From: Candidatus Woesebacteria bacterium
GTDB lineage: Bacteria > Patescibacteriota > Microgenomatia > UBA8517
Direction of reading: 5' to 3'
Assembly (NCBI GenBank): GCA_016700095.1
Contig: CP065002.1
Span: forward strand, 780,175-844,174
Length of the DNA stretch: 64,000 nt
Shown here: positions 10,245 through 26,921 of the stretch, one piece after another
Position numbering within the stretch: the stretch's first letter is position 1
Layout: the number at the start of each line of letters is the position of its first letter
The notes under the pieces: model-generated
The model's database searches: none
What the model was told of the DNA's origin: nothing
What the model saw: only the letters and a program-made list of their open reading frames with translations
Translations under genes and position numbers: made by a program

Positions 10245-10325
10245 CCAGTCTGATATTCGCACCGCAGTCGAACAAACAAGATGTAAAACCTTCCTCAAAT
10301 TTTGGCAAATCGTGAACTAAAGTTG

Positions 10326-10372: not shown

Positions 10373-10381
10373 TGGTATTTA

Positions 10382-10984: not shown

Positions 10985-11114
10985 TAGTTTTAAAACGTTT
11001 GCATAATCAGAGTTGTCTATTAGCGAAGTATATCAAAACTAAAGCATTGAGATAAGTTTGAGCTAGAACTAGTTATACAATAAACCATTAATTTCTGAGA
11101 CTAAAAATTGAAGC

Positions 11115-11164
11115 GGGCTAAATGCATTGTCCTGAGCATTGCCGAAGGGGGATGGGTTTAGAAC
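11115..11164 (+). repeat. R-A repeat copy 4 (gggctaaatgcattgtcctgagcattgccgaagggggatgggtttagaac)
   Basis: Followed by the conserved A-gene leader at 11165-11235. Confidence 0.8.
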
Positions 11165-11235
11165 CGGATTCGCCATTTAGACATACTACTTACCGATTTA
11201 TCTTGACCGAAAAGTTTTCATATGGGAATATGGGA

Positions 11236-11507
11236 TTATGAGTGATACAAAAATACTTCAAGCAATTCTTGATGGACAAGTTCAAATTCGTAAAGATATA
11301 AAGTATGTTGAAGAAAAACTTTCCAAAAAGATAGACGAGAATGGATCGAGAATAGATAAACTCGGATTACAGATTGCCGAGTTAGAAGATGACCTGCCCG
11401 CAATGCTAAAAGCATAGCTTCTGCAGGCGGGTGCTCCAACAATCGAGGAATTTGATGAACTGGAAAAAAGAGTAGAAAAAGTGGAAAAGAAAATCGCTTC
11501 TTTGTAA
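11236..11507 (+). pseudogene. Small coiled-coil paralog A3, disrupted by a 39-nt palindromic insertion
   Basis: Identical to A4 for 33 codons. An insertion (ctgcccgcaatgctaaaagcatagcttctgcaggcgggt) introduces a TAG codon. The C-terminal part APTIEEFDELEKRVEKVEKKIASL continues in frame with the N-terminal segment downstream of the TAG. Confidence 0.6.
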
Positions 11508-11573
11508 AAGTATTTCTTTACTTCAGATTGATAATTACAAAGTGACTTAGTGAACTATCTTAAGATCTTCCTT

Positions 11574-12401
11574 TTAATATTTCTCAAATGAAAGCGTATC
11601 AAAAAAATGTTCTAATTCAACAAACGCCGCTTCGAGTCTCATGTTTAATTCTTTCTCGTCTATATCAAAATAATCTACTTCTTTACTAAGTGTAAAAAAA
11701 ACTTGCCTATTACTTTCGCTGTTAATTGTATGAAACTCCATTCTTACGCCACATACAGACTTTGGACACGCTTTATATTTTTTGATTACATTTATACCAA
11801 CATCATTTATATATGTTTTATCAGGTGAGATGTTTTCTGGGATTCTCCAAGAAACATATTTTTCACCAGACACGAAAGGTCCACCCTCGTAGCCATCTAA
11901 AATTGGGAAATCATAATAAACACCTGAAGGTGATCTTGTGTTTAGTAATCTATTGGGCAATAGGGGAAGTTCCACTTCATTTTTACTTGGATCAATACCG
12001 ATAGTCCAACTATTAACGCTTATATTACTCTTTAAATATATTTGCCTTTTTGTAATTATTGCTCCGCTATATTTATATTCAGTTTTCTCCATACTTACAT
12101 CCACAAATTGTGGCGAATAAATTCCGAAGTCTGTGAAACTATATATTTGTTCATGAGGTTGACTCATCTCAGCAAGATTTCTAGGCATAATCGCTGATGG
12201 TTGGTTGATTGTTTGCTCATCATTGTCCCAAGGTCGTCTGGAAAATGTAGAACTTTTTAGTGTATTCTCCACTTTTTGAAGAAATATATATGAAACTAAA
12301 ACAAACGTAAATACTCCCATAGTCAATAAAATAATAGGTATCAAGTGAATATTTTTAGATTTAGACTTTGATAGCCTGAATAATTTGTTAACTTTCGGCA
12401 T
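11574..12401 (-). CDS. Hypothetical secreted/membrane-anchored protein (275 aa)
   Basis: N-terminal TM/signal (IHLIPIILLTMGVFTFVLV). TTTTGATATACT-N6-ATG promoter. Confidence 0.5.
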   Translation of the reverse strand: MPKVNKLFRLSKSKSKNIHLIPIILLTMGVFTFVLVSYIFLQKVENTLKSSTFSRRPWDNDEQTINQPSAIMPRNLAEMSQPHEQIYSFTDFGIYSPQFVDVSMEKTEYKYSGAIITKRQIYLKSNISVNSWTIGIDPSKNEVELPLLPNRLLNTRSPSGVYYDFPILDGYEGGPFVSGEKYVSWRIPENISPDKTYINDVGINVIKKYKACPKSVCGVRMEFHTINSESNRQVFFTLSKEVDYFDIDEKELNMRLEAAFVELEHFFDTLSFEKY

Positions 12402-12434
12402 TTTTATAGTATATCAAAAGCGAAAAATCATGGC

Positions 12435-12491
12435 GTGCTAAATGCCCTGCCATTCTGAAATTTCAATGTAAGGTGGGAATGAGTTTAGAAC
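12435..12491 (+). repeat. R-A repeat copy 5 (gtgctaaatgccctgccattctgaaatttcaatgtaaggtgggaatgagtttagaac)
   Basis: Followed by the A-gene leader at 12492-12563. Confidence 0.8.
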
Positions 12492-12563
12492 CGGATTCGC
12501 CATTTAGACATACTACTGCCCATTCATCTTGACCGAAAAGTTTTCATATGGGAATATGGGATT

Positions 12564-12797
12564 ATGAGTGATACAAAAATACTTCAAGCAATTCTTGATG
12601 GACAAGTTCAAATTCGTAAAGATATAAAGTATGTTGAAGAAAAACTTTCCAAAAAGATTGACAAAAATGGATCAAGAATAAATAAACTTGGATTACAGAT
12701 TGCTGAGCTAGAAGACGGTGCACCAACGGTTGACGAATTTGATCAGCTTGTCGAGAGAGTAGATAAGGTTGAGAAAAAAGTAGCTACATTTCAGTAA
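12564..12797 (+). CDS. Small coiled-coil protein, paralog A4
   Basis: 77 aa. Intact counterpart of A3. Confidence 0.6.
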   Translation: MSDTKILQAILDGQVQIRKDIKYVEEKLSKKIDKNGSRINKLGLQIAELEDGAPTVDEFDQLVERVDKVEKKVATFQ

Positions 12798-12827
12798 ACT
12801 CTAATTTATCTTTTATAAAAATCATGA

Positions 12828-12922
12828 CGGGTAAAATACCCTGCCATTCTGAAATTCTAATGAAAGATGGGGGTGAGTAAAAAACCGGTTTGGCTATATA
12901 ATCCCCACTCTTACTCACTTTT
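12828..12922 (+). repeat. Composite repeat: R-A-like fragment (gggtaaaataccctgccattctgaaattctaatgaaag) plus R-C copy 2
   Basis: The R-C part (12867-12922) is near-identical to 8141-8196 and overlaps the stop codon of the 12915..13862 gene. Confidence 0.7.
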
Positions 12923-13862
12923 TGTGTTTTATTAAAGAATGTACTTTCGATAGATCTCGACCTGGCAACATGAGAGTTAGATCATATTCACCAGCTTTTA
13001 GAGTATTAGAATTTTCAAGCAATCTATCACCATATGGTGATTTTTGTGTTTCAATTGCTACCGGTTCTGTTACACCAAGGTCAGCTAAGCCCTGTAAAAA
13101 TCCAGTGTCAACAAGCTTTACGCGACTATCACTGTTTTCCACGCATTCTGTTGTTAAAGAATTAACAGTCAAAACATTGCCTGCATATCTTTTTTCAAGA
13201 AGACCTGCAACGCTGGTTTTTATTGGACCGGGTATCTCTGGTTGACCAACGAAGTGTGGTTTTACTGTCTGCATCGGCATTCTGTATGCATGTGCTCGAC
13301 CTGCGATTAATATATGCACCCCTTCCACTTTGTTTCCGAGTATGTTTTCTACTCTAGTAATCCAATCTGCGTCTCTGTCAGTTTTTGATTTATCATCAAT
13401 AAAAACGACCTCAACACCGAGTTCGTAACACTTACTTACGAGTTGTAGCTTATAGTTGTGTCCGATAGAGTCTTTACGTAGACTATCTCTAGTTAGGTAG
13501 TCTTTTAAGGATTCTGGCATTACTCCTGTTTTGAGATAAGCTCTCAAATTTTCTGATTGGCTTTCGTCTTCTTCTAAAAAAACTGTTTTAAGGTCATGTT
13601 TTTTCGCAACACTTTCAACAAGTTCCACTTCATGCATCAGCGTTCCCTCGCCGTGATGATGTGCTTCTCCATATACAACAATTCCATTCCCGTCATGCAC
13701 ATCTATCCAATTCACAATTGCATCTGTCGGATTTTGCAGTACTTCTCTTCGGAGTGGAGGGTATGGAATTGAATTTTCTTTAGCAGTGACTAATTGTCTA
13801 ACTATTTCAGGTATTACAATTGCGTACTGAAGTTGTGGTTCTAAATCAGTTACTTCGTTCAT
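12915..13862 (-). CDS. Hypothetical protein, possibly ChaN/TraB/Tiki-like (GxxH motifs: YGEAHHHGEG, IAGRAHAY)
   Basis: 315 aa. The two His-containing glycine motifs resemble the haem-binding-uptake/Tiki superfamily. The assignment is weak. TTTTTGATATAAT-N6-ATG promoter. Confidence 0.3.
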   Translation of the reverse strand: MNEVTDLEPQLQYAIVIPEIVRQLVTAKENSIPYPPLRREVLQNPTDAIVNWIDVHDGNGIVVYGEAHHHGEGTLMHEVELVESVAKKHDLKTVFLEEDESQSENLRAYLKTGVMPESLKDYLTRDSLRKDSIGHNYKLQLVSKCYELGVEVVFIDDKSKTDRDADWITRVENILGNKVEGVHILIAGRAHAYRMPMQTVKPHFVGQPEIPGPIKTSVAGLLEKRYAGNVLTVNSLTTECVENSDSRVKLVDTGFLQGLADLGVTEPVAIETQKSPYGDRLLENSNTLKAGEYDLTLMLPGRDLSKVHSLIKHKK

Positions 13863-13884
13863 AACTAAATTATATCAAAAAGGG

Positions 13885-13931
13885 GCTGGACTTAGTGCCT
13901 GCCCGCCACTGGAGGGAACGATGTTTGAAAC
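13885..13931 (+). repeat. R-B repeat copy 3 (gctggacttagtgcctgcccgccactggagggaacgatgtttgaaac)
   Basis: Separates the ChaN-like cassette from the ahcY cassette. Confidence 0.8.
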
Positions 13932-13994
13932 TGTTATTCTTCAGTGACATACACAAGTTTTGTACAATTATAGGTAAAATGTGTAAAATACCTC

Positions 13995-15302
13995 ATGGAC
14001 TATTACGTTAAAGACATTTCACTTGCAGAAAAAGGTAAAAAGGCTGTTGAGATCTCATTGATGGACATGCCAGGTTTAGAGGAGTTGGCTAGATTGTATG
14101 AAGATAAAAAACCACTAAACGGAATTAAAATCACAGGTTGTGTAATAGTAACCTATGAAACGGCAGCATTTATACTGCTTCTAAAAAAATTAGGTGCAGA
14201 TCTCCGTTGGTGCTCAGATAATAAGTATGCCTCACTAGACGATGCCTGTGCTTTTGTTGCTTCAAAAGGTATACCTATCTTTGCAACAAGCGAACTAACA
14301 GATGAAAAATATGAGTGGTGCTTTGAACAAGCTGCTAAATTTAAAGACAAAAACGGGAATACAGTTTGGCCAGATATCACAATTGATGATGGATGCGATA
14401 TCACTCGATTCTTACACGAAAAGTACCCAGAAGCATATGAAACAATATTGGGCACTTGCGAACAGACAACCTGTGGAGTTAACGCCCATTATAATTTAAA
14501 AGGGGAAAAAAGACTGAATACGGCAGTTATAAACGTGAATGAATCTGTTACTAAATCTAAGTTCGACAATATCTATGGAAGTAGAGAGTCGTTAATTGAG
14601 GGTCTTCAGTCAAGTATAAATTTACAGATTGGCGGAAAAAAGACTGTAATTTATGGATATGGTGAAGTAGGAAAAGGGTGTGCAAAAGTACTTCGAGGTT
14701 TGGGGGCAAACGTTCACATCGTGGAAATTGATCCCATAATTGCCATGCAGGCATATATGGAAGGTTTTAGTGTAGTAAATAGAAACGAGGCTGCTGAGAT
14801 TGGAGAGATATTCGTGACCGCAACAGGATGTGTTAAGACAGTTGCAAGAGAAGATCTTCAAAAAATGAATGACGGAGCTGTACTTATGAATATGGGTCAT
14901 GGAAATATGGAAATAGATACAGATTACCTTCTTCGATCTAGGGAACATATTGTCGAAAAAATAAGCGATAATTTACAAAAGATAACGTTAAGTCCAGACA
15001 AACGACTTTATTTACTTGCGGAGGGGTATTTAGTAAACCTCGTTGGTGGTGACGGGCATCCACCAAGAGTAATGAGTATTACATATACCAATCATATTCT
15101 TGCAATATTGGATTTATTAGGTAACAAAGGGAAATATAAAAAGGGAGAAATATATCGTTTACCAAGAGAATTAGACGAGAAGGCAGCCAGACTCAACTTC
15201 CCTGGCATTAGTGGCAAGTTGACTATACTTACTGACGAACAGGAAAAGTATCTCGGCGTTAAGAAAACAGGACCTTATAAACGAGAAGATTACAGATACT
15301 AA
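13995..15302 (+). CDS. ahcY: Adenosylhomocysteinase (S-adenosyl-L-homocysteine hydrolase)
   Basis: Full-length match to the AHCY architecture. The NAD-binding motif GYGEVGKGCA and the substrate domain (KPLNGIKITGC) are present. Confidence 0.9.
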   Translation: MDYYVKDISLAEKGKKAVEISLMDMPGLEELARLYEDKKPLNGIKITGCVIVTYETAAFILLLKKLGADLRWCSDNKYASLDDACAFVASKGIPIFATSELTDEKYEWCFEQAAKFKDKNGNTVWPDITIDDGCDITRFLHEKYPEAYETILGTCEQTTCGVNAHYNLKGEKRLNTAVINVNESVTKSKFDNIYGSRESLIEGLQSSINLQIGGKKTVIYGYGEVGKGCAKVLRGLGANVHIVEIDPIIAMQAYMEGFSVVNRNEAAEIGEIFVTATGCVKTVAREDLQKMNDGAVLMNMGHGNMEIDTDYLLRSREHIVEKISDNLQKITLSPDKRLYLLAEGYLVNLVGGDGHPPRVMSITYTNHILAILDLLGNKGKYKKGEIYRLPRELDEKAARLNFPGISGKLTILTDEQEKYLGVKKTGPYKREDYRY

Positions 15303-15337
15303 TACAAGACAATAAAAAGTTCGTAATTATGACCTTT

Positions 15338-15384
15338 GCGGGACTTAGTGCCTGCCCGCTTTTAGAGGGAACGATGTTCGAACC
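15338..15384 (+). repeat. R-B repeat copy 4; left end of duplication copy 2 (15338-16811)
   Basis: Identical to copy 1 at 8905. Confidence 0.85.
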
Positions 15385-15398
15385 TATTTACATAAGTA

Positions 15399-15884
15399 TT
15401 AGCAAAAACCTCTCAGATATTTTTCGATTGTACCTAATCCCATTTCTTTTCGAAGTCTATTTAATTTCTTCTTATCTGTTACTTGATATAATTCCCATCT
15501 ATTAGTCTTTTTGTCAAATGACACTTGTGTACCATAAATCTGCCTTTTCCCTTCATACATTAAAATTCTATCAGTTAAAAATGCTATATTTTTTAGGGCA
15601 ATGTCATTTTTGTGTTTCAGCATCATTTTGAGATAAGCTTTTTGGAATTTCAAATCGGGTGAGTGTTGTACCAAAAGCCATGCATTACACGAAGCCTTCT
15701 TGCCCACTTTTGAGATAGTTGGCAGTCCGATATCTGCGACTATGCTCTTTAATCTTTTGGTGTTTTCTCTATCAACTTTATTTATTTTATCCCAAAGTGT
15801 TTTTGAATCTTCGCTTTCCAACTTTTTTCTCAGCTCTTGGTCAATTTTAGCCAAATCATTTATTTCAGCAGCATGCCATTTCAT
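15399..15884 (-). CDS. Hypothetical protein (161 aa), duplicated gene copy 2
   Basis: Identical to 8966..9451. Confidence 0.5.
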   Translation of the reverse strand: MKWHAAEINDLAKIDQELRKKLESEDSKTLWDKINKVDRENTKRLKSIVADIGLPTISKVGKKASCNAWLLVQHSPDLKFQKAYLKMMLKHKNDIALKNIAFLTDRILMYEGKRQIYGTQVSFDKKTNRWELYQVTDKKKLNRLRKEMGLGTIEKYLRGFC

Positions 15885-16012
15885 ACTTGAAGTATATCAA
15901 AAGCAATTAAGAGCGGAACTCATCACACAAGCAACTTGAGAGCGTAGTTGTTGTTTGCAAATAAACAGTGAGGTTTTTGTTTATCCGGCAAACAGTGCTA
16001 CACTGAATAACA

Positions 16013-16678
16013 ATGAGGAAGGGCTTTGTCCATCTTTTGACACCAATTGTTCTTGTTTTGATTGTTGTAGGTGCACTTTTTTATCTTAACAGAAATAAAT
16101 CTAATCCAGATAAATTAACTGATATTCAAAACGATACTGAGATGGTTGTTGAGAAAACGGACATTGACCCACAACCCGAAACCACTACGCCAACTGGTCA
16201 AAGTGTCAAGTTACCAAAAACAGTTAAACCATCACCAACCGCTGCACAGAACTCATCAAACAGTAATACTAACACAAAACAAAATCCAACTAGCACTAGC
16301 ACCCCAGCACCTACTTCTACACAAATAATTACTAGTTCGCCAGCAACACCACCCACGACTGCCCCAAAGAATCAGATGGGATATGTATTTAGTAAAAACT
16401 CGATTGACACTGTCGTAAATAACACCGGTCAAGTGTATGGAGTACTTTCATTCACTTCTACAGGATCCACAAGTTTTCTGTTTTCAGGTACACCACAGTA
16501 TCAGGGAGGCATAAATTGGCGTCCAGCCTCAGGAGCAAACTATGCAGGCCAAACAATACAACTAGAGATACAAGTGTTTAGCAACGTTCCTGAAGGTGTT
16601 TATGAAGGAACAATGACCTTTACTGACAAAACTACGGGAATAACAAAAGATTTCTCTACGAAACTCACCGTTCTGTAG
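16013..16678 (+). CDS. Thr/Pro/Ser-rich cell-surface protein (N-terminal TM anchor, low-complexity stalk, about 100-aa C-terminal globular domain)
   Basis: MRKGFVHLLTPIVLVLIVVGALF forms the anchor. The linker is of the form TTTPTGQSV...PATPPTTAPK. The intact copy has T6 at 16077-16082. Confidence 0.55.
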   Translation: MRKGFVHLLTPIVLVLIVVGALFYLNRNKSNPDKLTDIQNDTEMVVEKTDIDPQPETTTPTGQSVKLPKTVKPSPTAAQNSSNSNTNTKQNPTSTSTPAPTSTQIITSSPATPPTTAPKNQMGYVFSKNSIDTVVNNTGQVYGVLSFTSTGSTSFLFSGTPQYQGGINWRPASGANYAGQTIQLEIQVFSNVPEGVYEGTMTFTDKTTGITKDFSTKLTVL

Positions 16679-16759
16679 CCAGTCTGATATTCGCACCGCA
16701 GTCGAACAAACAAGATGTAAAACCTTCCTCATATTTTGGCAAATCGTGAACTAAAGTTG

Positions 16760-16806
16760 GCATGGCTTAGTGCCTGTCCGCCTTTGGATGGAACGATGTT
16801 TGAAAC
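16760..16806 (+). repeat. R-B repeat copy 5 (right end of duplication copy 2)
   Basis: Same family as 10326-10372. Confidence 0.8.
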
Positions 16807-16820
16807 TGGTATGTCCAGAA

Positions 16821-17084
16821 CTAGTAACCAAAGAGTAATATACTTTTTGCTTTGAAGTGTCTCTTTACTTCCTTACGGGTGAAAAAGTATAACTCAAAGG
16901 AATTAAAGAGTAGGATAAATACTTTTACAATTAATTCCTTAATATTTTCTGGGAAGGTGAATAATTGGCTAATTAACCCAAGTGAAGCTAAAAAGAATAT
17001 TACAGAAACAACCCAAGGCTTTCTCTGATTGAGTCCCATATATATTGATCCTCCCATAATTATTCCCAATACGCCCGTCAACAA
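16821..17084 (-). CDS. Small membrane protein (87 aa)
   Basis: Two or three hydrophobic helices. Low information. Confidence 0.3.
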   Translation of the reverse strand: MLTGVLGIIMGGSIYMGLNQRKPWVVSVIFFLASLGLISQLFTFPENIKELIVKVFILLFNSFELYFFTRKEVKRHFKAKSILLFGY

Positions 17085-17321
17085 ACTAATTCCGAAGTAG
17101 AATGAGCTGCAATAGAAATAATACCAAAACAGAACATGAACAGGTAGAATGCACGTATAACTTTTAATAACTTATCAATAGCATTTTCAGAGAGTTTCAT
17201 AACTCGTATTTCGTATATCAAGAATAATTGGTCCCAACAAGATATACATTCCTGAGACTAATAATCGAAACAGGCTTTAGTAGATCAGATTGATAACCTT
17301 TATTTTTTGCCATACCTAAAT

Positions 17322-18029
17322 TTAAGTATATTTAGTCCCAAGCAATGCGATTATCGAAACTAATAGTGATACAAGCAGAACGAATCTGGTAAACTCCCAG
17401 AGGTATATTGGCATTGACTTTATTTTCTTCCAAATAAAATAAAACAGACCAGCTATTAATCCTACGCCAACTGAGAAGACCATACCTCCAATTATTTGTG
17501 CAAAAAATATATATATGCAGAAAATCAACTCTCTCTCACAAATTAGGATTGATCTGACACTTACCTCAGTAACAAGGACTCCTATTAGAGCAACCATAAG
17601 TAGCAAAAACAATGATTGCCCTTTATAGACATTATCTCGTTCAGTTCTTTTAAATTTTAATGTACTACCAGCTTTATCATGATTTATTGTAATATGATAT
17701 GAATATACAGTAAGCGGGATATTAAAAAGTAATACTGGTATGATGTCGATTCCATACCCATCTACAAAACTTAATATACTGCTAAACCATAAGAAAACTA
17801 CTACTAGAGTTATATAAACTTTCGATAGTTTATATTTTGAGAACCTTAGAGCAGCAACTAAAATTATAAATATAAAAGACCCTACGAGAGAATAAAGCAC
17901 AAATATAGAGTCTTGATCTAATATATTTAAAGAAAAATAACTACCGAGAAATAATATGACAGAAAGTATAGAAGAAAAATATGAAAGATTCTTAGATGAT
18001 TTTTCTAAATCCATATAAAAGAATAACAC
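17322..18029 (-). CDS. Polytopic membrane protein (about 7 TM), unknown function
   Basis: Hydrophobic helices throughout. The annotated start is GTG, and the internal ATG at 18014 is a possible alternative. Confidence 0.45.
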   Translation of the reverse strand: MLFFYMDLEKSSKNLSYFSSILSVILFLGSYFSLNILDQDSIFVLYSLVGSFIFIILVAALRFSKYKLSKVYITLVVVFLWFSSILSFVDGYGIDIIPVLLFNIPLTVYSYHITINHDKAGSTLKFKRTERDNVYKGQSLFLLLMVALIGVLVTEVSVRSILICERELIFCIYIFFAQIIGGMVFSVGVGLIAGLFYFIWKKIKSMPIYLWEFTRFVLLVSLLVSIIALLGTKYT

Positions 18030-18074
18030 ATTTTCTTTATTTGGTACTATAAAATAGAAGATAAAAAATCTTAG

Positions 18075-18120
18075 CGGGACTTAGTGGATGCCCGCCTCTG
18101 GAGGGAACGATGTTCGAACC
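18075..18120 (+). repeat. R-B repeat copy 6 (gcgggacttagtggatgcccgcctctggagggaacgatgttcgaacc)
   Basis: Same family as 8905-8951. Confidence 0.8.
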
Positions 18121-18156
18121 TGTTTTATGTGAATTAATACACAGCAAAAAAAAGCT

Positions 18157-18891
18157 TCATTTCTTTTCAAACACAAGCATTTGAGATAAAGTTACATTCT
18201 TTTCTTTTAGCTTTTGGTGTTTTTCGTAAGCTTCTGTTAAATACTTACTCGGTTTCATGTTAATCTGATTTTTAAGAATGAATCCATTTTTATTAGCAGA
18301 GTCGATATATGCTTTTGGATCTCTTACAATGTCAGCTATGGTCCCTGTCTTTCTGTAAGCTCTGATTATAAAAGTGTTATATTTATCACCCTTTAGATAT
18401 TCAATGTCTTTTCTCACACCTTCTTTGGGTCGTTTAGCATATTCAGGATCCGAAATAATTGCGATAAACATTCCACCACTTTTTAGATATTCTGAGATCT
18501 TCTCAAACGCACCATCTAAATCTTCAACGTGGGTCAAAACATAAAGTGCAATAGCAGTATCAAAAGATTCTTTCTCGGGATAAAAAAAATCTTGTAAACT
18601 AGATTCTATTAACTCAATATCAAAATTTTCTTTAGCTAGCTTTACGTTGTTTGATGAAGGATCAAAACCAACAGCCTCTCTTGCCCCCTTTTCTTTTACA
18701 TATTTAACTAACCACCCACTGCCAGCACCTATGTCTAAAACTGTTTTGTCTTTCCATTTGGGGTGTACTTTTTCAATCCAATAAAGAAAATGTTTTCGGT
18801 GGGGATCATCTAGACCTTTCACTCCTTCATATTTAACATCCTTGCGATCATACTGCTTAGGGTCAGTGGCAATATTCAACAACTTTGTCAT
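18157..18891 (-). CDS. Class I SAM-dependent methyltransferase (small-molecule type)
   Basis: Motif I (VLDIGAGSGWL), motif II (AVGFDPS) and post-I residues are present. TTCTGATATAAT-N6-ATG promoter. Confidence 0.7.
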   Translation of the reverse strand: MTKLLNIATDPKQYDRKDVKYEGVKGLDDPHRKHFLYWIEKVHPKWKDKTVLDIGAGSGWLVKYVKEKGAREAVGFDPSSNNVKLAKENFDIELIESSLQDFFYPEKESFDTAIALYVLTHVEDLDGAFEKISEYLKSGGMFIAIISDPEYAKRPKEGVRKDIEYLKGDKYNTFIIRAYRKTGTIADIVRDPKAYIDSANKNGFILKNQINMKPSKYLTEAYEKHQKLKEKNVTLSQMLVFEKK

Positions 18892-18925
18892 GAATAAATT
18901 ATATCAGAAGTAAAAAATCGTGGCA

Positions 18926-18974
18926 GGCTAAATGCATTGTCCTGAGCATTGCCGAAGGGGGATGAGTTTAGAAC
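18926..18974 (+). repeat. R-A repeat copy 8 (ggctaaatgcattgtcctgagcattgccgaagggggatgagtttagaac)
   Basis: Upstream of the methyltransferase start. No A gene is attached. Confidence 0.8.
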
Positions 18975-19060
18975 TTCACACTTTATTTAATCCTTGTATT
19001 ATTTCACCTTTACTATCATATTAAATATAGAATTAGGGTATATAGTAAATAGGAATTAAT

Positions 19061-20341
19061 ATGAAAAAAGTATTAAGTAGTTTTTTTGTAATCGGTATTA
19101 TTGGGATATTAGTCGTTTATTCAACAAATGCTTTCTTCAGTGACACAGAAACTTCAAAAGGTAATGTGTTTGAGGCGGGAAAGGTGGATTTACTTGTCGG
19201 TAGTGAATGTACGTATAATGGACAGGCTTCAACGGAGTGTGGCACATGGGACTCAACTAATTTAGCGCTCGAGAAATTATTCAATTTTTCCGATATCAAA
19301 CCAGGTGATTACGGAGAAAACACTATAAATCTAAGAGTAGAAGATAATCCGTCTTGGCTGTGTATGGCAATTGTTTCAACCTCAAATGATGATACGAGTT
19401 CGACTGAACCTGAATTGCAGGAATTGGGAGAAACTCAGGAAGATGCAGCTAATCTCTGGGATGGTGAATTAAGGCAAAATATGACCTTCCATGTTTGGGC
19501 TGATGTTTGCGATTTATTTCCTGCAGTTCCCGGAGATAATATTTATAAAGAAGACTGTGATGAGAATATAACTGAAAACGTAAATAATGAATCAGCGACT
19601 TTTGCACTTGCCGATAGTACAAGCAACATCTTTACTGGAATATCTGGTCAATCTTTAAACGGAAATGAGAGCTATTATTTAGGATTTGGATGGTCATTAC
19701 CGAGTGATGTTGGGAACATTGCACAAACAGATAGTTTCACAGCAAACATTTCGTTTTACGCAGAACAAGAAAGAAATAATGCTAGTTTTATATGCCCTAA
19801 TTCTTCAGTAGTGTTCTCAGGTGATTTTAATGACGGCAACATAGACAACTGGGAAATCATTGGTTCACATAAAGTACATTCTGATCTAGGTAGCTGGAGA
19901 GTTGAAAATGGAGAATTGCTTCAAACCAACGGAGGTGATGGGTATATGATTTTTGCCGATAACCTTAACTTAAGTACACAAACACTTGAAGTAGATATGA
20001 AGCACAATGATCCTGCTGGATATGGCGGTTTTGTTATTTGGTTTCAAGATTATGACAACCTAATTTATATAAGAATGTATCCTGGTTATGCAGAAATATG
20101 GGTAGAACAATGGGAGAATGGAGTCTCAAGTGTAACCAAGTATCCATATTTGTCAGCCTATTCCACTTGGTACACTTTTAAAACCTTTGCTGATAGTGAT
20201 AGTGGAAATATAGATGTTTATGTAAATGGAGTAAAATTGTTTACTCATCATGCTACGACAACCAAACGCGATGGCAAGTCTGGATTAATGAATGGAAATA
20301 GTGGAAGCTTTTTTGATAATTTTAGATTAACGGCGAATTAA
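19061..20341 (+). CDS. TasA/camelysin (CalY)-like secreted protein with SipW-cognate-class signal peptide and a C-terminal lectin/LamG-like domain
   Basis: The N-terminus (...STNAFFSDTETSKGNVFEAGKVDL, then NFSDIKPGDYGENTINL) parallels B. subtilis TasA (TWAAFNDIKSKDATFASGTLDL...NLKPGDKLTKDFQF). A classic RBS (AGGA) precedes it, unlike its neighbours. Confidence 0.55.
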   Translation: MKKVLSSFFVIGIIGILVVYSTNAFFSDTETSKGNVFEAGKVDLLVGSECTYNGQASTECGTWDSTNLALEKLFNFSDIKPGDYGENTINLRVEDNPSWLCMAIVSTSNDDTSSTEPELQELGETQEDAANLWDGELRQNMTFHVWADVCDLFPAVPGDNIYKEDCDENITENVNNESATFALADSTSNIFTGISGQSLNGNESYYLGFGWSLPSDVGNIAQTDSFTANISFYAEQERNNASFICPNSSVVFSGDFNDGNIDNWEIIGSHKVHSDLGSWRVENGELLQTNGGDGYMIFADNLNLSTQTLEVDMKHNDPAGYGGFVIWFQDYDNLIYIRMYPGYAEIWVEQWENGVSSVTKYPYLSAYSTWYTFKTFADSDSGNIDVYVNGVKLFTHHATTTKRDGKSGLMNGNSGSFFDNFRLTAN

Positions 20342-20380
20342 ACCATAACTTGGGAACTGTAAAAAAATCCAACTTCCCAA

Positions 20381-20800
20381 TCACTGTTTCTTATTCTTCG
20401 ATCCTTTATAGTAGTAATAAGCTAAACCACTCGTAAGAAGCGCTGTATATACCCAACCAGAGTCATCATTAGTATCATCGTCAGCTTCTTGATTATAGTT
20501 ATTTTCAGAGTCCGAAATTAAGTTATTATATTGATTGTAGTTTTGTTTGGGAGTAGAAGTAACGTAAACAGGCTTTGAAGTTGGTACCCTTGTTGGCATT
20601 TTTGTAGGATAAACATATACAGGCGCTGAGCAATTAGGATAATATGGAGCACATGTACTAGATAATGATGTCCCATCGCAACATCCACAACCACACACTC
20701 CGCCATGGTGAGAACAGCAACCCGAGCGAGCATTAATATAATCTGTTGACAATAAAAATAAGAAGAGAACAATGGCAGGTATATAAAATATATACCGCAT
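20381..20800 (-). CDS. Cys-rich secreted protein with C-terminal TM anchor (CCSHHGGVCGCGCCDG motif)
   Basis: Signal peptide, a 12-Cys cluster, a Pro/Thr/Tyr-rich stalk, and a C-terminal hydrophobic helix followed by KNKKQ. Confidence 0.4.
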   Translation of the reverse strand: MRYIFYIPAIVLFLFLLSTDYINARSGCCSHHGGVCGCGCCDGTSLSSTCAPYYPNCSAPVYVYPTKMPTRVPTSKPVYVTSTPKQNYNQYNNLISDSENNYNQEADDDTNDDSGWVYTALLTSGLAYYYYKGSKNKKQ

Positions 20801-20924
20801 AATTTAATTTAGTTGTTATTTGGCTCTTTATACTACTAATTAGTGACAAAGTAAAATGCTGATACCATCGGTTAATAACGAGATTTGTGAATATGAAGTT
20901 TGTGGATTATGCTATTGAAGCAAT

Positions 20925-21449
20925 CTAATCAATAAACTCTAATATTTTACCCACCAACACATTCCTATCCCACAATTCCACTCCATTAACTCGTGCTAAT
21001 CTTTTAGCTTGACGTGTAAAATAACTATTTGTCACAACCATTGCTCCATTACACTTATACATTTTGATTGATCCTAGCGCTTCTCTAACTGCATCCACAC
21101 CAATATATGACTTATGCCGTTTTACTTGAACAGCAATAGTTTTTCCATTCTTTGAAACAATTAAATCAGCACCATAATCACCGTGATATGAACCTACATG
21201 TCTTACTGAATATCCCATATTCCTAAACAAATTAGTTAGGTATTCTTCGAATGCCTGACCATCCATTTTGTCAATCTCATTCATTCCTGCCTTCGATAAT
21301 CTTTTTAGTTTGTATATTTTGTAGACAATTCTTACCACCAGAGATACAAACAAAAATACCCAAATCGGCCAAGTAATTTTCAATGCATTGGGGATACTGG
21401 CAAGAAATGATTCAAGAAGCATCGAAGGCATATCAATTTCAGATGTCAT
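20925..21449 (-). CDS. Membrane-anchored Mrr-cat (restriction-endonuclease-like, PD-(D/E)xK) domain protein
   Basis: FEEYLTNLFRNMGYSVRHVGSYHGDYGADLIVSKNGKTIAVQVKRHK matches the Mrr N-terminal nuclease-domain signature (D...D/E.K). It is preceded by a TM helix (ITWPIWVFLFVSLVVRIVY). TATAAT-N6-ATG promoter. Confidence 0.65.
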   Translation of the reverse strand: MTSEIDMPSMLLESFLASIPNALKITWPIWVFLFVSLVVRIVYKIYKLKRLSKAGMNEIDKMDGQAFEEYLTNLFRNMGYSVRHVGSYHGDYGADLIVSKNGKTIAVQVKRHKSYIGVDAVREALGSIKMYKCNGAMVVTNSYFTRQAKRLARVNGVELWDRNVLVGKILEFID

Positions 21450-21498
21450 TACATTATTATAGCTATTAATCCAACACCCGAATACGACAAAAGGTGTG

Positions 21499-21515
21499 CG
21501 GGGTAGACGGGACTT
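21499..21515 (+). repeat. tRNA-Asp 3'-end fragment copy (gcggggtagacgggact), att-like
   Basis: Identical to the 3' 17 nt of the tRNA-Asp gene at 24654-24670. It heads a roughly 100-nt module that contains a hairpin and ends in the R-B short form at 21597-21624. Confidence 0.75.
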
Positions 21516-21596
21516 AGTTCGACAAGCTCACTCTAAACTTCTCGTCCCGATCTATAAAACAAAAAACCTCACACTTTGGTAAGGATTTTCTTGTTT

Positions 21597-21624
21597 GCGG
21601 GACTTAGTGAACGAAGTTCGAACC
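21597..21624 (+). repeat. R-B repeat copy 7, short form (gcgggacttagtgaacgaagttcgaacc)
   Basis: Lacks the 19-nt internal cctgcccgc...ggg segment of the long form. Confidence 0.7.
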
Positions 21625-21626
21625 TA

Positions 21627-22064
21627 TTATTTGTACAGAGAAAACTTACCTGTAAATTCTCTAAGTTCTTCAGTTGACCCAAACAAAACGATTCCGTAAT
21701 ATTCAAGATCTTCTTCTGGTGTTTCACTTGTTGCATTTTGCTGTTCCTGTGATGTTCCTATTGTCATGGTACTGGTAAAGTCAGAAAAGGGAATATTTCT
21801 TTCAATTGCCTCTTTTCTTACTTTTCTGATTTTATTGGAGTTATCAGCTTTTAATACAATGAATGGGTAGTGTGAAATGTTTGGATGTGTACCGCCATCC
21901 TTATCCCTGTATTGCAGAAAGTACATCTCACTATTTTTTCCAGACCCACCAGCCAATCCAGCTGTTATGTGTCCGAGTGCATTAAGTAGTTTACCCGTTT
22001 CTACTTTTTTATTAAGAATAGCCATAAAGCGCTTAGAATTTTCATCTGGAAGACTTTCTGTCAT
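21627..22064 (-). CDS. Hypothetical protein, possibly DUF2000-like
   Basis: The pattern KRFMAILNKKVETGKLLNALGHITAGLA...DGGTHPNIS...YYGIVLFGSTEEL resembles my recollection of DUF2000, with low certainty. The likely start is the ATG at 22064 (TGTATAAT-N6-ATG), not the TTG at 22079. Confidence 0.3.
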   Translation of the reverse strand: MTESLPDENSKRFMAILNKKVETGKLLNALGHITAGLAGGSGKNSEMYFLQYRDKDGGTHPNISHYPFIVLKADNSNKIRKVRKEAIERNIPFSDFTSTMTIGTSQEQQNATSETPEEDLEYYGIVLFGSTEELREFTGKFSLYK

Positions 22065-22123
22065 AGTTGGATTATACAAGAATATGCTGATATCACAAAC
22101 AACAATTGAGGCTAAAAATCGAG

Positions 22124-22151
22124 GCGGGACTTAGTGAACGATGTTCGAACC
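22124..22151 (+). repeat. R-B repeat copy 8, short form (gcgggacttagtgaacgatgttcgaacc)
   Basis: Preceded by gaggctaaaaatcgag, a partial copy of the 58-nt shared segment. Confidence 0.7.
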
Positions 22152-22157
22152 TATTAT

Positions 22158-23141
22158 TTAAACAACTGCTGCTTCTAGAAATGCCATCGTTAGCTTTTCG
22201 CTATCTATTGAAGTTTTTATTCCGATAGGCATCGGAAGTTGAACCATCTTATGACCAAAGTCGACATCCGCGAGAATAGGAAAATTATATTCATTTGTGC
22301 ATCTTAAGACAATTTCTTTAAAGGAAGGTTCAGTCATTCCATTTATTGATGTCTGTTTCATGTCAACTAACTTACCCACCAACATACCAGATATTACGTC
22401 GAATAGCCCAACGTATTTTAGATGTGTTAATACTCGTTCAACTCTATATGAAGGTGAGTTATCCAACTCCCAAAAGAAAATAGAATCTCTAAGTGAAGAA
22501 ATTGTTGGAAAATATTCCGTACCCATAAGTGAGTCTATCATACTCAAATTGCCTCCAAAGAGGAGTCCTTCAGCTTTTCCTGACCTCCAACTGTGCCATT
22601 TAGTTAGTCGTTTTACCTCCCCGATAGCAGTGTCTGATGTGAGAACCTGCTTAAAGTAAGTTGAACCTTTATCTTTATTGTTCGGTGCAAATTGGTTCCA
22701 TACCCATCCTAACTCATACGAAAGCAAACCCATATGAAAACCCACTAAATTAGCTTTGGTGTAAAAAGCACTGTGAATATTGGTCATATTACTAAAACCA
22801 ATAAATGGTTTGGGGTTTTTCTTAACTAATTCGTAATCTAAATGCTCTAGTACAGTGATGCAATCATTTCCGCCGTCATGAGCAATAACAGCTTTAACTT
22901 CTGGATCTGCATACATAGCATTTATATCATCTGCTCTTTCCTGTGGGGAACCTGCCCTCCACCATTCTCTTTTCCTTAGGTTTTTTGATTCCTTTAATCT
23001 AAAACCCATATTTTCGATCTCTTTTCGTCCAAGCATATATTGTTCCAGATATTCTTTATTATCGTTATTGGGGAACGGATGGGCTGGAGCAACTACACCA
23101 ATCGTATCTCCAGCATTTAGTTTTGGTGGTTTAAGTGCCAT
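22158..23141 (-). CDS. LD-carboxypeptidase (peptidase S66; LdcA/MccF-like)
   Basis: LKPPKLNAGDTIGVVAPAHP... followed by a downstream Ser/His/Glu-containing core typical of S66. The likely start is the ATG at 23141 (TTTGATTATACT-N6-ATG) rather than the GTG at 23174. Confidence 0.7.
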   Translation of the reverse strand: MALKPPKLNAGDTIGVVAPAHPFPNNDNKEYLEQYMLGRKEIENMGFRLKESKNLRKREWWRAGSPQERADDINAMYADPEVKAVIAHDGGNDCITVLEHLDYELVKKNPKPFIGFSNMTNIHSAFYTKANLVGFHMGLLSYELGWVWNQFAPNNKDKGSTYFKQVLTSDTAIGEVKRLTKWHSWRSGKAEGLLFGGNLSMIDSLMGTEYFPTISSLRDSIFFWELDNSPSYRVERVLTHLKYVGLFDVISGMLVGKLVDMKQTSINGMTEPSFKEIVLRCTNEYNFPILADVDFGHKMVQLPMPIGIKTSIDSEKLTMAFLEAAVV

Positions 23142-23218
23142 ATAGTTAGTATAATCAAAGGTTCGAACCAACACTACTGTCTATACAATTTTGGTTAATC
23201 ATTGAAGCTAAAAACGAA

Positions 23219-23332
23219 GCGGGGTAGACGGGACTTGGTTCGACAAGCTCACTATAAACTTCTCGTCCCGATCCATAAAACAAAAAACCTCACACTTTGG
23301 TGAGGATTTTCGTTTGCGGGGTAGACGGGACT
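23219..23332 (+). repeat. att-like module: tRNA-Asp 3' fragment, then 80-nt spacer with hairpin (cctcacactttggtgagg), then a second tRNA-Asp 3' fragment
   Basis: gcggggtagacgggact at 23219-23235 and again at 23316-23332. The spacer is about 90% identical to 24570-24653 and 21516-21596. Confidence 0.75.
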
Positions 23333-23493
23333 CCATCTAGAATCATTCGTAATTACTATTATAAAATTACTGAAAGAATATCATGACTTTGTGTATGCTT
23401 AAACGACTAATTTTTAGGTTATTTAATCAAATCGGGTACAAACAATTTCCTTGTCTGTGTTTATATATTTAGCTTTGCTAGAATAAAGATATT

Positions 23494-24144
23494 ATGTTTA
23501 ACTCAAAGTCAATAATGAATCATAAAGAAATTGAGCAAGCTAGATCTGATTTTAAAACTCATATTGAAAAAACTACGAGCCAAGAAGAACGTAAAGCTGT
23601 TCAAGAAGCCATTCAACAATGCGAAAAAGATAAAAAACCAAACAAATATCAAAAGTCTGCTTATGTAAGTGAAATTCCTGTTTCAAATAACAACTTAAGT
23701 TCAGTCCAAAGTAAGCTTCCTATACTGATCAAGAATAAGTTCATTAAAACTTTACTAATACTTGGGTTTATTGTTCCTCTAATATTGCTTTGGGTAATTA
23801 CTAATATTTTAAAAATCGATCGAACAAATAATGTTTTCATTTATATTTTAGTTCCTATTTTCTTTTTATCAGTAACACTTATTCCATTTACGGGAATAAT
23901 TAAATATATTGCTAAAATATTGCCATCTAATTTTTTCAGTCTACTATGTCGAAACCAATTTAACATAAATAAATATCGAAAAGATAAGATAAATCCAACA
24001 GGGAAAGAATTGAAATTGGAAAAGCATATCTACGAACTATATACTTTCGGTTTTGTAACCTGTTTGGAATGGTTCATGATAATTTTTGGGGGCATTTGTG
24101 CATTGATTTCAATAAGTGTACCTTTCATTATCGGTCATTATTAA
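23494..24144 (+). CDS. Membrane protein (about 4 TM), unknown
   Basis: The N-terminal soluble region is Lys/Glu-rich, followed by hydrophobic helices. Confidence 0.4.
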   Translation: MFNSKSIMNHKEIEQARSDFKTHIEKTTSQEERKAVQEAIQQCEKDKKPNKYQKSAYVSEIPVSNNNLSSVQSKLPILIKNKFIKTLLILGFIVPLILLWVITNILKIDRTNNVFIYILVPIFFLSVTLIPFTGIIKYIAKILPSNFFSLLCRNQFNINKYRKDKINPTGKELKLEKHIYELYTFGFVTCLEWFMIIFGGICALISISVPFIIGHY

Positions 24145-24234
24145 ATTTAAAGTTTGATGCAAATACAAAGACACAGAGGCATGCATTAGGATGCAGATAA
24201 ACTATAAATGCTAAATCGCGTTATATATATAAAA

Positions 24235-24534
24235 TCAAACACGACGAATTCTTCCATTTTCGACCGTACAACCATTTTTCTTATAGAATTCCTCTAGCTC
24301 TGAATCGCTCATTCCCTGAGGTCTAAAATCTGCAGTAATTCCACCTGTATGACTTTCAAAACCTTGCAACAATTCGCTTCCTACACCTTTTCTTCTGTAA
24401 TCTTTGTCAACTTGAATATTGTCCAAATGGCCATCAGCCCCCCTACAGCACTTCCAACTATTTTTGGTCCTTCTTCTGCAGTTAGATAAACTACGTCATC
24501 TGCTGTTTTATTTCGTCTTATTCTAACCATCGTA
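24235..24534 (-). pseudogene. GNAT acetyltransferase fragment, frameshifted at a G5 run near 24426
   Basis: The C-terminal ORF carries GNAT motif A (VDKDYRRKGVGSELL). A 31-codon N-terminal piece lies in another frame. The total length is too short for an intact GNAT. Confidence 0.35.
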
Positions 24535-24555
24535 CTACACAGATTTAACTGTTCC

Positions 24556-24569
24556 TGGGTAGACGGGAC
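24556..24569 (+). repeat. tRNA-Asp 3'-end fragment (gggtagacgggact), about 85 nt downstream of the tRNA gene
   Basis: Forms a direct repeat with the tRNA 3' end at 24654-24670. The intervening spacer carries the hairpin cctcacactctggtgagg (24623-24640) followed by a T-rich run. Confidence 0.75.
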
Positions 24570-24653
24570 TTAGCCCGACAAGCTCACTATAAACTTCTCG
24601 TCCCGATCCATAAAACAATAATCCTCACACTCTGGTGAGGATTTTCTTGTTTG

Positions 24654-24728
24654 CGGGGTAGACGGGACTCGAACCCGCGACCTTCCGCGTGACAGGCGGA
24701 CACTCTGATCCAACTGAGCTACTACCCC
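24654..24728 (-). tRNA. tRNA-Asp (anticodon GTC)
   Basis: Hand-folded cloverleaf. Acceptor stem ggggtag/ctacccc, anticodon loop cTGTCAc, T-arm gcgggTTCGAGTcccgt. Length 75 nt. CCA is not fully encoded. Confidence 0.9.
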
Positions 24729-25985: not shown

Positions 25986-26223
25986 GTGCACGTGTTATAC
26001 TGGTTGATATACTACTCGTAGCAAACGAGTTTTGGTTTATTTGATTCTTTTATGAGCCAAGATATACGTTTTGGTGGATTGAATAAAATTGAATAAACAA
26101 CTACGGCTTAAATCCCGTGGTTTTCTTAAAAAAACTCGAAAAGTTTGTTCACAGCTTCGCTTGAGACGCGGGCTAATTGCCAACGGTTTTTAGCGAATTA
26201 TGAATAAATTTAATATCGTATAT

Positions 26224-26296
26224 GCGATGGTAGCTCAGCTGGTAGAGCGTCTGCTTCCCAAGCAGAAGGTCGCGGGTTCGACTCCCGTCCATCGCT
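26224..26296 (+). tRNA. tRNA-Gly (anticodon CCC)
   Basis: Acceptor gcgatgg/ccatcgc, anticodon loop ttCCCaa, T-arm gcgggTTCGACTcccgt. Confidence 0.85.
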
Positions 26297-26394
26297 CACA
26301 GTTCATTAACGTTTTATTTAGTTAAACATAGGTATACCAAATTGTTGAGATCACTTGTTTTGACTATCATTATTTTTGCGTGATATAGTAAATT

Positions 26395-26634: not shown

Positions 26635-26692
26635 ATTAATTTACTCTCCACATCTCACGTAGTAAAATTGCATTGTGTTTTGTGTTAGGCAT

Positions 26693-26766
26693 GCCAAGGT
26701 AGCTCAGTTGGATAGAGCACTGCTTTCGTAAAGCAGGGGTCGCGGGTTCGACTCCCGCCCTTGGCT
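26693..26766 (+). tRNA. tRNA-Thr (anticodon CGT)
   Basis: Acceptor gccaagg/ccttggc, anticodon loop ttCGTaa, T-arm gcgggTTCGACTcccgc. Confidence 0.85.
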
Positions 26767-26921
26767 CAGACATGGCATATCTAAAAACTCGTTGCTTAAA
26801 AAAATAAAGACTAAATTCAAAAAAATATTAAATCAGTTGAGTGTAAATCGTAAATAATCTGCCATTTTGTTCCAAAGTTTGCTATAGTTTGTTTTATACG
26901 TGTAAGTACGATTAGAATTTA

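Follow-up and report, generated by a model that had tools for sequence, protein, structure and literature searches.

The stretch of DNA analyzed here, 64,000 nt from the genome of a Candidatus Woesebacteria bacterium (contig CP065002.1, positions 780,175 to 844,174; hereafter, the window), carries an intact tRNA-Asp(GTC) gene on the minus strand at 24653-24728 (ARAGORN; Rfam 68 bits), preceded by a promoter-like TTGTCG-17-TATAAT on the same strand (24787-24759). Downstream of this gene, on the tRNA strand, lies an 18.6-kb array in which 21 related sites, extending from 24669 to approximately 6084, bound about 20 segments. All 21 sites are on the minus strand, that is, they point in the same direction. 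Sites of the types described below (A, L, or V) are absent from 1-6 kb, from 25-64 kb, and from a leftward extension of 5.6 kb, as far as obg/eno. Core chromosomal genes, among them ParB, IleRS, ftsAZ, and the mur/dcw cluster, occupy the right half of the window. Thus, the tRNA-Asp gene marks the edge of an accessory region of about 28 kb. Woesebacteria belong to the Candidate Phyla Radiation (CPR; Patescibacteria), whose genomes are tiny and in which, to our knowledge, the acquisition and shuffling of accessory genes is poorly understood. Our subject is the array and the means by which it may have been assembled.

The tRNA-proximal end of the array is built from copies of the tRNA tail. Specifically, the 17-mer GCGGGGTAGACGGGACT, the reverse complement of the tRNA-Asp 3' end, is present in exact form at 21498-21514, 23219-23235, 23316-23332, and 24653-24669, the last being the tRNA-Asp gene itself, and in degenerate form (15/17) at 24554-24570. 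These five matches in the window compare with 0.00 expected from shuffled sequences. A conserved spacer of about 80 nt, called S, occurs three times (24571-24652, 23236-23315, and 21515-21596; pairwise identity 92-94%), each time flanked on both sides by the 17-mer, called A, so that three modules have the layout A-S-A. In the third of them, a 9-nt deletion has left only GCGGGACT of the tRNA-proximal A. Every S has two hairpins: one is terminator-like in both directions, with a T-run behind it, and in the other an inverted copy of the core pairs with the distal A. All of these elements lie on the minus strand. The anchor of the array is site A0, the tRNA 3' end ...GGGTTCGAGTCCCGTCTACCCCGC (24676-24653). 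Next come S1, with its terminator hairpin and second hairpin, and site A1 (AGTCCCGTCTACCCAGG, 15/17), together spanning 24554-24652 (S1 24571-24652; A1 24554-24570). Module M2 (23219-23332) consists of A2 (23316-23332), S2 (23236-23315), and A3 (23219-23235). Module M3 (21498-21628) consists of a short L-site that overlaps the DUF2000 stop codon (21597-21628), S3 (21515-21596), and A4 (21498-21514).

A sequence-only reading of this DNA had placed the 17-mer at 24556, 23316, 23219, and 21499, each copy with an ~80-nt spacer. The repeat is borne out, but the coordinates shift by 1-2 nt, the copy assigned to 24556 matches at only 15/17 positions, and the tRNA gene's own copy had gone uncounted. 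Likewise, the conserved spacer exists, but in three copies rather than four, each between two 17-mers. The hairpin and T-run ascribed to the spacer are present in every S as a bidirectional terminator-like structure, and the alignment of modules proposed there yields the 92-94% pairwise identity of the S copies given above. Its annotation of the cargo (an LD-carboxypeptidase, which matches Peptidase_S66, a DUF2000-like gene, a GNAT fragment, and a membrane protein) is confirmed as well. What that reading described as four copies over 3.2 kb is real, but it is only the tRNA-proximal tip of an array of 21 co-oriented sites over 18.6 kb, most of them L- or V-type sites that share the terminal ...CCCGC alone.

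The sites fall into four types, A, L-short, L-long, and V, which constitute one diverged family. When their 3' ends are aligned, all types finish in ...CCCGC, the last five bases of the tRNA-Asp gene. The 17-nt tRNA copy is present in only five of the 21; the other 16 lack it, and common to them are ...CCCGC and a separate conserved block. The core AGTCCCG, in the tRNA orientation, has ten minus-strand copies between 8906 and 24669 versus two unrelated copies on the plus strand. The L-short form, AATAGGTTCGAAC[A/T]TCGTTCACTAAGTCCCGC, adjoins two genes at their 3' ends, LD-carboxypeptidase and DUF2000; the former copy, AATAGGTTCGAACATCGTTCACTAAGTCCCGC (22124-22155), starts 2 nt past the LD-carboxypeptidase stop codon. 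The L-long form, with the consensus AAyAGkTTCrAACATCGTTCCmTCyArrrGCGGrCAkkCACTAAGTCCCGC, occurs at 8905, 10326, 13885, 15338, 16760, and 18074. These copies are AAAACAGGTTCGAACATCGTTCCCTCCAGAGGCGGGCATCCACTAAGTCCCGC at 18074-18126; a degenerate site with the terminal AGCCATGC at 16760-16812, which forms the upstream edge of the first copy of a duplicated unit; a site at 15338-15389 that ends that copy; a site with the terminal AGTCCAGC at 13885-13937 that closes the S-adenosyl-L-homocysteine (AdoHcy) hydrolase segment; a degenerate site at 10326-10378; and a site at 8905-8956 that ends the second copy of the duplicated unit and is followed by a TTCGTTTTTAGCTTCA leader. The V type is more diverged (GGTTCTAAACyCATyCCC...GCATTTAGCCyGCC). 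Self-BLAST and profile searches placed eight copies within 6084-18981, one of which is weak. The seven clear ones lie at 18901-18981 (...GGACAATGCATTTAGCCTGCC, followed by GATATAAT and, after 6 nt, the methyltransferase ATG), 12807-12893, 12411-12499, 11091-11172, 8091-8166, 7105-7182, and 6723-6811, and the weak V-like copy lies at 6084-6144.

A duplication inside the array connects the sites to segment boundaries. A 1,475-nt unit is present twice at 99.8% identity (8905-10378 and 15338-16812), with the copies 5 kb apart and the AdoHcy hydrolase gene between them. The unit comprises a gene for a 221/240-aa secreted protein on the plus strand, a DUF6624 gene on the minus strand, which is consequently present twice, and both flanking sites. 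The plus-strand open reading frames (ORFs) of the two copies differ at the 5' end, the one at 9522-10244 having a TTG start and a length of 240 aa. Identity extends from the first base of the upstream site to the last C of the downstream ...AAGTCCCGC. Because the edges of identity are the edges of sites, it is the sites that delimit the mobile or duplicated module. The position of the boundary is suggested by the 9-nt sequence TCTACCCCG, by which A-type sites differ from L-type ones. It follows the tRNA body, the end of S, and the end of the first tRNA-proximal cargo segment (c1), and it is absent after L and V arms. On the right-hand side, both the start of S and the TTCGTTTTTAGC leader occur with it and without it. 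Thus, TCTACCCCG tracks the left context and not the right, and the unit boundary is best placed immediately after ...CCCGC. A crossover inside AGTCCCG was considered and dropped, because the 9-nt indel follows the left context.

Between sites, the segments measure either 69-71 nt (the three S copies) or 322-2525 nt. Sites start -2 to 45 nt past the stop codon of the same-strand upstream gene, and the next same-strand gene begins 22-127 nt past the site. Most of the cassette genes are intact and tightly packed against the sites. Their functions are unrelated and accessory, with GNAT, DUF2000, nuclease, methyltransferase, and nucleotidyltransferase genes among them, and such cargo is typical of cassettes. 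Site orientation remains constant beside plus-strand genes (those for AdoHcy hydrolase and the 426-aa, 216-aa, 221-aa, and coiled-coil proteins), which argues against a purely gene-expression role for the sites.

Beginning at the tRNA, segment c1 (23333-24553) contains a GNAT fragment (24235-24530, minus strand) and, on the plus strand (23494-24144), a gene for a 216-aa membrane protein that matches no Pfam family. The GNAT region consists of two overlapping ORFs of 49 and 63 aa, only the second of which matches Acetyltransf_7; this split gene is probably a frameshifted pseudogene. Segment c2 (22156-23218, minus strand) contains the conserved leader TTCGTTTTTAGCTTCA...GGTTCGAACC...TATACT and the LD-carboxypeptidase (Peptidase_S66) gene at 22158-23141. 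Segment c3 (21629-22123, minus strand) contains a promoter-like TTGTGA-16-TATAAT (22098-22071) and the DUF2000 gene (21627-22064). Segment c4 (18982-21497) contains genes for an Mrr_cat nuclease (20925-21449, minus strand), a Cys-rich 139-aa protein (20381-20800, minus strand), and a 426-aa secreted protein with a 3keto-disac_hyd domain (19061-20341, plus strand). A methyltransferase gene follows (18157-18891, minus strand). The AdoHcy hydrolase gene (13995-15302, plus strand) is the sole gene of segment 13885-15337; this enzyme, normally a housekeeping one, stands alone between two L-sites, opposite to the array, in a cassette-like arrangement. The interval 10326-13884 contains a 315-aa gene, a 275-aa gene, a nucleotidyltransferase-like gene (10382-10984), and coiled-coil genes at 12564-12797 and 11238-11417, both on the plus strand. 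The distal cassettes (6084-8904) contain a 210-aa membrane gene, a coiled-coil gene (7862-8074, plus strand), a C39 peptidase gene (7222-7731), a further coiled-coil gene (6875-7093, plus strand), and a nucleotidyltransferase gene (6165-6713).

The four coiled-coil genes at 6875-7093, 7862-8074, 11238-11417, and 12564-12797 are paralogs encoding proteins of 59-77 aa (MSDTKILQAILDGQ...). Each lies between two V-type sites, and their upstream/promoter regions are near-identical (TTGACCgaaaag...TATGGGAATATGGGATT-ATG). In other Woesebacteria, homologs reside in accessory-gene clusters, once beside a C39 peptidase as in the window, and no V or L sites lie near those homologs. More generally, the leaders that follow sites in the array are promoter-like, and about 80 nt of leader is common to unrelated genes; three sites are followed by the shared leader TTCGTTTTTAGCyTCA.... 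Many sites are followed by GATATAAT or GATATACT located 6-7 nt 5' of an ATG (18901-18925, 13865-13884, 12405-12431, and 6717-6742), which suggests leaderless or near-leaderless mRNAs starting just past the sites.

Related sites exist in other genomes. A degenerate pattern for the left part of the L-site produced 11 metagenome matches, only three of which look related: the contigs that we call L019, L023 (the same sequence as L004/L005), and L028. The remaining matches are mostly high-GC and chance-like. L019, a low-GC, CPR-like, 52-kb JGI contig, has five co-oriented sites versus 0.18 expected, with the common block AACATCG.TCCCTCCAGAGGCGGGCAGGC. Its sites include a short form, GTTCTAACATTGCTCACCAAGCGGAGC, parallel to that in the window, and long forms, ...AACATCGCTCCCTCCAGAGGCGGGCAGGCGTCAGGCGGAGC. 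They lie directly past stop codons and ahead of -10 boxes, with methyltransferase, NUDIX, ParD/YafQ, and membrane-protein genes between them. L028 and contigs of Woesebacteria GW2011_GWB1_38_5b also have the 21-nt block TCCCTCCAGAGGCGGGCAGGC, joined to different terminal sequences. Because the block is shared while the termini differ, the site looks like a conserved block joined to a genome-specific end, which here matches tRNA-Asp. L019 also contains, at 3708-4010 on the minus strand, a tRNA gene split by a group I intron (Rfam RF00028, 75.7 bits) that ARAGORN missed. The 3' end of this tRNA, GGGGGAGC, resembles the site terminus GGCGGAGC, and the gene is on the opposite strand, 640 nt away; derivation of the L019 terminus from a tRNA 3' end is a lead only. 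Separately, in another Woesebacteria lineage (L014, positions 4255-7630; also L012, L013, and L015-L017), accessory genes (APH, AbiEii, and small proteins) are separated by four 67-nt repeats of one orientation (...AAATTATTTTTCAAAATAATTACGAACTTTTTACGCTC...), and these repeats share the 18-mer ATAATTACGAACTTTTTA with the flank of the window site at 15338.

Viral sequences offered no such relatives: the L-site pattern and the tRNA 3' 22-mer had 0 matches in viral contigs. The 20-mer CCCTCCANNGGCGGGCAGGC did match GC-rich viral contigs, but these matches are uninformative, with unrelated flanks and, by a rough estimate, ~1-2 matches expected by chance. A GC-rich predicted viral contig of 35.9 kb (L035/L037; IMGVR_UViG_3300037312_001873) has three copies of the 20-mer CCCTCCACAGGCGGGCAGGC, not all in one orientation; this is probably an unrelated repeat and a chance match. 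The literature that we searched contains no description of such arrays in CPR bacteria. Two further features of the window lie to the right of the array. A 36-nt near-perfect palindrome (35544-35579; self-BLAST inverted match, 94%) is located about 170 nt from tRNA-Val (35300-35376). The tRNA-Gly(CCC) gene (26222-26298) and the tRNA-Thr(CGT) gene (26691-26768), 470 nt apart, are ~81% identical over 80 nt, which is unusually similar for tRNAs of different identities.

The organization of the array invites comparison with integrons and with clusters of attC sites lacking integron integrases (CALINs). Short ORFs separated by sites of mostly one orientation characterize integron arrays, and the ~20 segments and 21 co-oriented sites of the window follow that pattern. 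Like such arrays, the window holds tandem, short, mostly co-oriented, unrelated genes in ~0.3-2.5-kb cassettes, each with a site just past the stop codon; a cassette is duplicated within the array; and, as in CALINs, there is no adjacent integrase. The cargo overlaps too. DUF2000 is 75-85% identical across several CPR phyla, and homologs 81-85% identical to the window protein are cassettes of attC-type arrays in two CPR contigs, L030 and L031. L030 (6613-19187) harbors an integron-type array with tRNA-Glu, a 270-aa recombinase, and attC-separated cassettes (DUF2000; NUDIX; HTH with EcoRI-type methylase and GmrSD/HNH; GNAT). There, an 85%-identical DUF2000 sits in a same-strand run whose separators are 110-135 nt with R''/L''...L'/R' pairing (GCCTAAC...GTTAGGC). 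The tyrosine recombinase is divergently oriented beside the array start and tRNA-Glu, and it scores just at the NCBIfam 'XerA/integron integrase' cut-off (221 versus 220 bits). L031 has a similar attC-type cluster between ftsK and rpoC. In a different CPR contig (L044, 5951-6349), a DUF2000 gene is inserted between pheS fragments and pheT. Taken with the 75-85% identity across CPR phyla, this insertion hints at a translation- or tRNA-related role of DUF2000 and at frequent transfer.

The sites themselves differ from attC. The R''/R' boxes (RYYYAAC/GTTRRRY) are missing from the window sites, and at the unit boundary the sites end in the tRNA 3' end rather than in a GTT core. Fold z-scores of the sites and of whole inter-cassette regions range from +0.5 to -2.1, with no long hairpin, whereas four of the five L030 attC strands, folded identically as a positive control, score -3.3 to -4.7 (the fifth, -1.6). 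On this comparison, attC-like hairpins were rejected for the window sites. A complete integron is headed by attI and IntI, a tyrosine recombinase with an IntI-specific extra domain; the head of this array is a tRNA gene, and no scanned ORF of the window is a recombinase. Many cassettes apparently possess their own promoter-like leader. Thus, the array has an integron-like organization and shares cargo with CPR integron-type arrays, but its sites lack the structure that defines attC.

The second comparison is with genomic islands at tRNA-type genes (tDNA islands). At Dehalococcoides ssrA, tandem arrays include integrase-less members and have a conserved motif next to the direct repeat (PMC3146451). 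The window resembles the Dehalococcoides ssrA islands and the cis-mobilizable elements (CIMEs) of Streptococcus in three respects: behind an intact tRNA-type gene, direct repeats of its 3' end (exact at 23316, 23219, and 21498; 15/17 at 24554) bound foreign segments; beside the repeat lies a conserved motif that does not come from the target gene; and members without an integrase are presumed to be mobilized in trans. Flanking sites around segments with no recombinase genes are CIME-type features. Unlike in those islands, the window units are single genes, about one-tenth the size, and are present in much greater numbers; no unit includes an integration module, and the tRNA copy is confined to the five A-type sites. 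Xer-dependent dif modules (pdif modules of Acinetobacter plasmids; integrative mobile elements exploiting Xer) are likewise small, integrase-less, and bounded by short sites, with a housekeeping-type tyrosine recombinase presumed elsewhere, and Xer-like recombinases are ubiquitous in Patescibacteria. The difference is that the window sites are all direct, whereas pdif sites alternate, and they are linked to a tRNA 3' end rather than to dif. By eye, the aligned sites contain no 11-6-11 dif-like dyad, the lineage's own dif sequence not being known for comparison. Most likely, the array combines features of integron/CALIN arrays with those of tandem tDNA islands.

We think it somewhat probable that this is a cassette array anchored at tRNA-Asp and built by serial site-specific insertion at the tRNA 3' end, with the recombinase encoded elsewhere and S, whose site copies the tRNA end, acting as the smallest cassette, one that bears a terminator. 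From sequence we infer three points: that the sites serve recombination, where the crossover lies, and that the enzyme acts in trans. The notion is that each unit would consist of a short promoter-like leader, one to a few genes, and a site at or just past the stop codon that ends in ...CCCGC. A site-specific recombinase, most likely of the tyrosine type and encoded outside the window, would join the site of a circular unit to the ...CCCGC of the tRNA or of a resident site. Insertion immediately after ...CCCGC would leave the tRNA intact, so units could accumulate in tandem with the tRNA undamaged. S would be the minimal unit, 97-99 nt including its own site, consisting of an intrinsic terminator and a site that copies the last ~24 nt of the tRNA, and the three S copies may insulate the tRNA and neighboring cassettes. 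If so, an S circle would display the junction ...GTCGAACTAAGTCCCGTCTACCCCGC joined to AAACAAGAAAATCC, and a DUF2000 circle the junction ...CACTAAGTCCCGC joined to CTCGATTTTTAGCC. The family of the L030 integrase has 7,277 matches in Patescibacteria when that protein is used as the query. This ubiquity makes a trans-acting enzyme plausible, and the family is a candidate only.

Other histories could produce such a locus. Conventional integrative elements, each with its own integrase, could have inserted serially at the tRNA-Asp 3' end and then decayed by deletion to attachment-site remnants and scraps of cargo. The hallmark of tDNA islands, displaced 3'-end copies behind an intact tRNA, is present here; Dehalococcoides ssrA provides a documented precedent (PMC3146451); the GNAT gene, part of the cargo, is broken; and some of the sites have degenerated. 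We nonetheless regard this course as unlikely: none of the scanned ORFs in the ~20 segments of 0.3-2.5 kb is an integrase or excisionase remnant, most genes are intact and packed against the sites, S recurs three times as a discrete module, and the 16 sites that are not tRNA copies share a 20-40-nt block found in other genomes too. The sequence-only reading had offered two options, decayed islands and small cassettes mobilized in trans. The former, although consistent with the tRNA-end repeats, is the weaker, given the small size and number of the segments, the lack of recombinase remnants, and the fact that most of each site is not tRNA-derived. The latter fits best, considering the 21 co-oriented sites, the boundaries at site edges, the 99.8% duplicated unit, and the related sites in another CPR contig; mobility itself is conjectural. 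A true integron remnant, that is, a CALIN with attC sites too divergent or truncated to recognize and an integron integrase elsewhere in the genome, seems to us very unlikely. CALINs are common (PMC9668308), the array organization and cargo types match those of integron arrays, DUF2000 is attC-flanked in L030 and L031, and the short L-site resembles the L'-R' half of the L030 attC (GGTCGCAAC[A/T]TC... versus GGTTCGAAC[A/T]TCG...). Against it stand the missing R''/R' pair and imperfect hairpin, the fold scores relative to the controls, the sites ending in the tRNA's ...CCCGC rather than in a GTT core, and a window without IntI.

The repeats could instead be non-mobile regulatory elements, terminator/promoter modules spread locally by duplication and gene conversion, their tRNA likeness stemming from a copied tRNA terminator region. 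The strong bidirectional terminator of S, the GCGGG-N12-CCCGC stem and subsequent T-run of the long L-sites, the GATATAAT or GATATACT that precedes an ATG by 6-7 nt at many sites, and the ~80-nt leader shared between unrelated genes all speak for this possibility. It is nevertheless quite unlikely in our estimation. Orientation is uniform even beside opposite-strand genes, the short L-sites lack any stem, and L- and V-sites fold no better than shuffled sequence. Moreover, the L-site alignment contains no covariation supporting RNA structure; its conservation is that of primary sequence. A structured-RNA reading of the L-site was rejected on this ground and for lack of an Rfam match: Rfam matched only three tRNAs in the window, and S, L, and V sites had no match at E <= 5. 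Conservation of the 21-nt block across genomes beside unrelated genes would not be expected of a simple terminator, and the duplication boundaries fall exactly at site edges. Uniform orientation, the absence of folding and covariation, the cross-genome block, and site-exact duplication edges appear to fit recombination sites better than regulatory repeats. Finally, repeats in a metagenome-assembled genome could have been collapsed or mis-joined. Short-read contigs do end at the modules: in an independent short-read (Logan) assembly of run SRR11674018, from the same sample, other contigs break at the repeats/modules. However, one contig of that assembly is identical to window positions 18935-23270, spanning M3 and both short L-sites, which shows that the arrangement around M3 does not stem from an error in a single assembly. 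The S copies differ by 6-8%, which identifies them as distinct loci. An assembly artifact is thus extremely unlikely.

Several observations weigh against the proposal of a tRNA-anchored array assembled by a recombinase acting in trans. As the sequence-only reading had noted, the window has no integrase: Pfam scans of almost all ORFs of 120 aa or more, of every cassette gene, and of a small number of shorter ORFs revealed no recombinase domain, including in the island beside tRNA-Asp. Window ORFs with no Pfam family, inspected by eye, include none that is recombinase-like, and no recombinase is recorded in the 5.6-kb leftward extension. Among the best 120 of the 7,277 matches to the L030 integrase, none comes from this genome. 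The sites have no clear dyad symmetry of the kind expected of a tyrosine-recombinase core. The duplicated unit takes in the upstream site too, and a simple model with crossover at the 3' edge only predicts otherwise. No excision product or empty site was seen: exact-pattern scans for S (GCTCACTNTAAACTTCTCGTCCCG) gave 0 matches in the genome, viral, and metagenome collections, as did the tRNA-Asp 51-mer in genome contigs, so these scans yielded no relative. No V-type site turned up in other genomes. In L019, no tRNA 3' end heads the array; it opens with a bare CACCAAGCGGAGC, after which comes a TTGACA/TATAAT promoter. In addition, several leaders to the right of sites are conserved and promoter-like, so part of the conservation may be regulatory.

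Here, we have described a locus in which ~20 unrelated accessory genes form a regular, site-delimited array on a tRNA gene. If the sites are recombination sites, the locus would be a compact gene-capture platform that joins integron logic, with single-gene cassettes and an enzyme supplied in trans, to tRNA-island logic, in which the 3' end of the target is regenerated. The sites would also constitute a concrete, testable set for finding the responsible recombinase. DUF2000 and the small coiled-coil proteins stand out as widely exchanged CPR cassette genes. We speculate, as a possibility that we hold doubtful, that Woesebacteria and their CPR relatives have a second, previously undescribed gene-capture system parallel to integrons. 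Such a system would employ a double-strand, non-hairpin site made of a ~20-40-bp block (AACATCG..TCCCTCCAGAGGCGGGCAGGC or the short form) and a genome-specific core, which here is the tRNA-Asp 3' end, with the tRNA as the equivalent of attI and a Xer-like recombinase encoded elsewhere.

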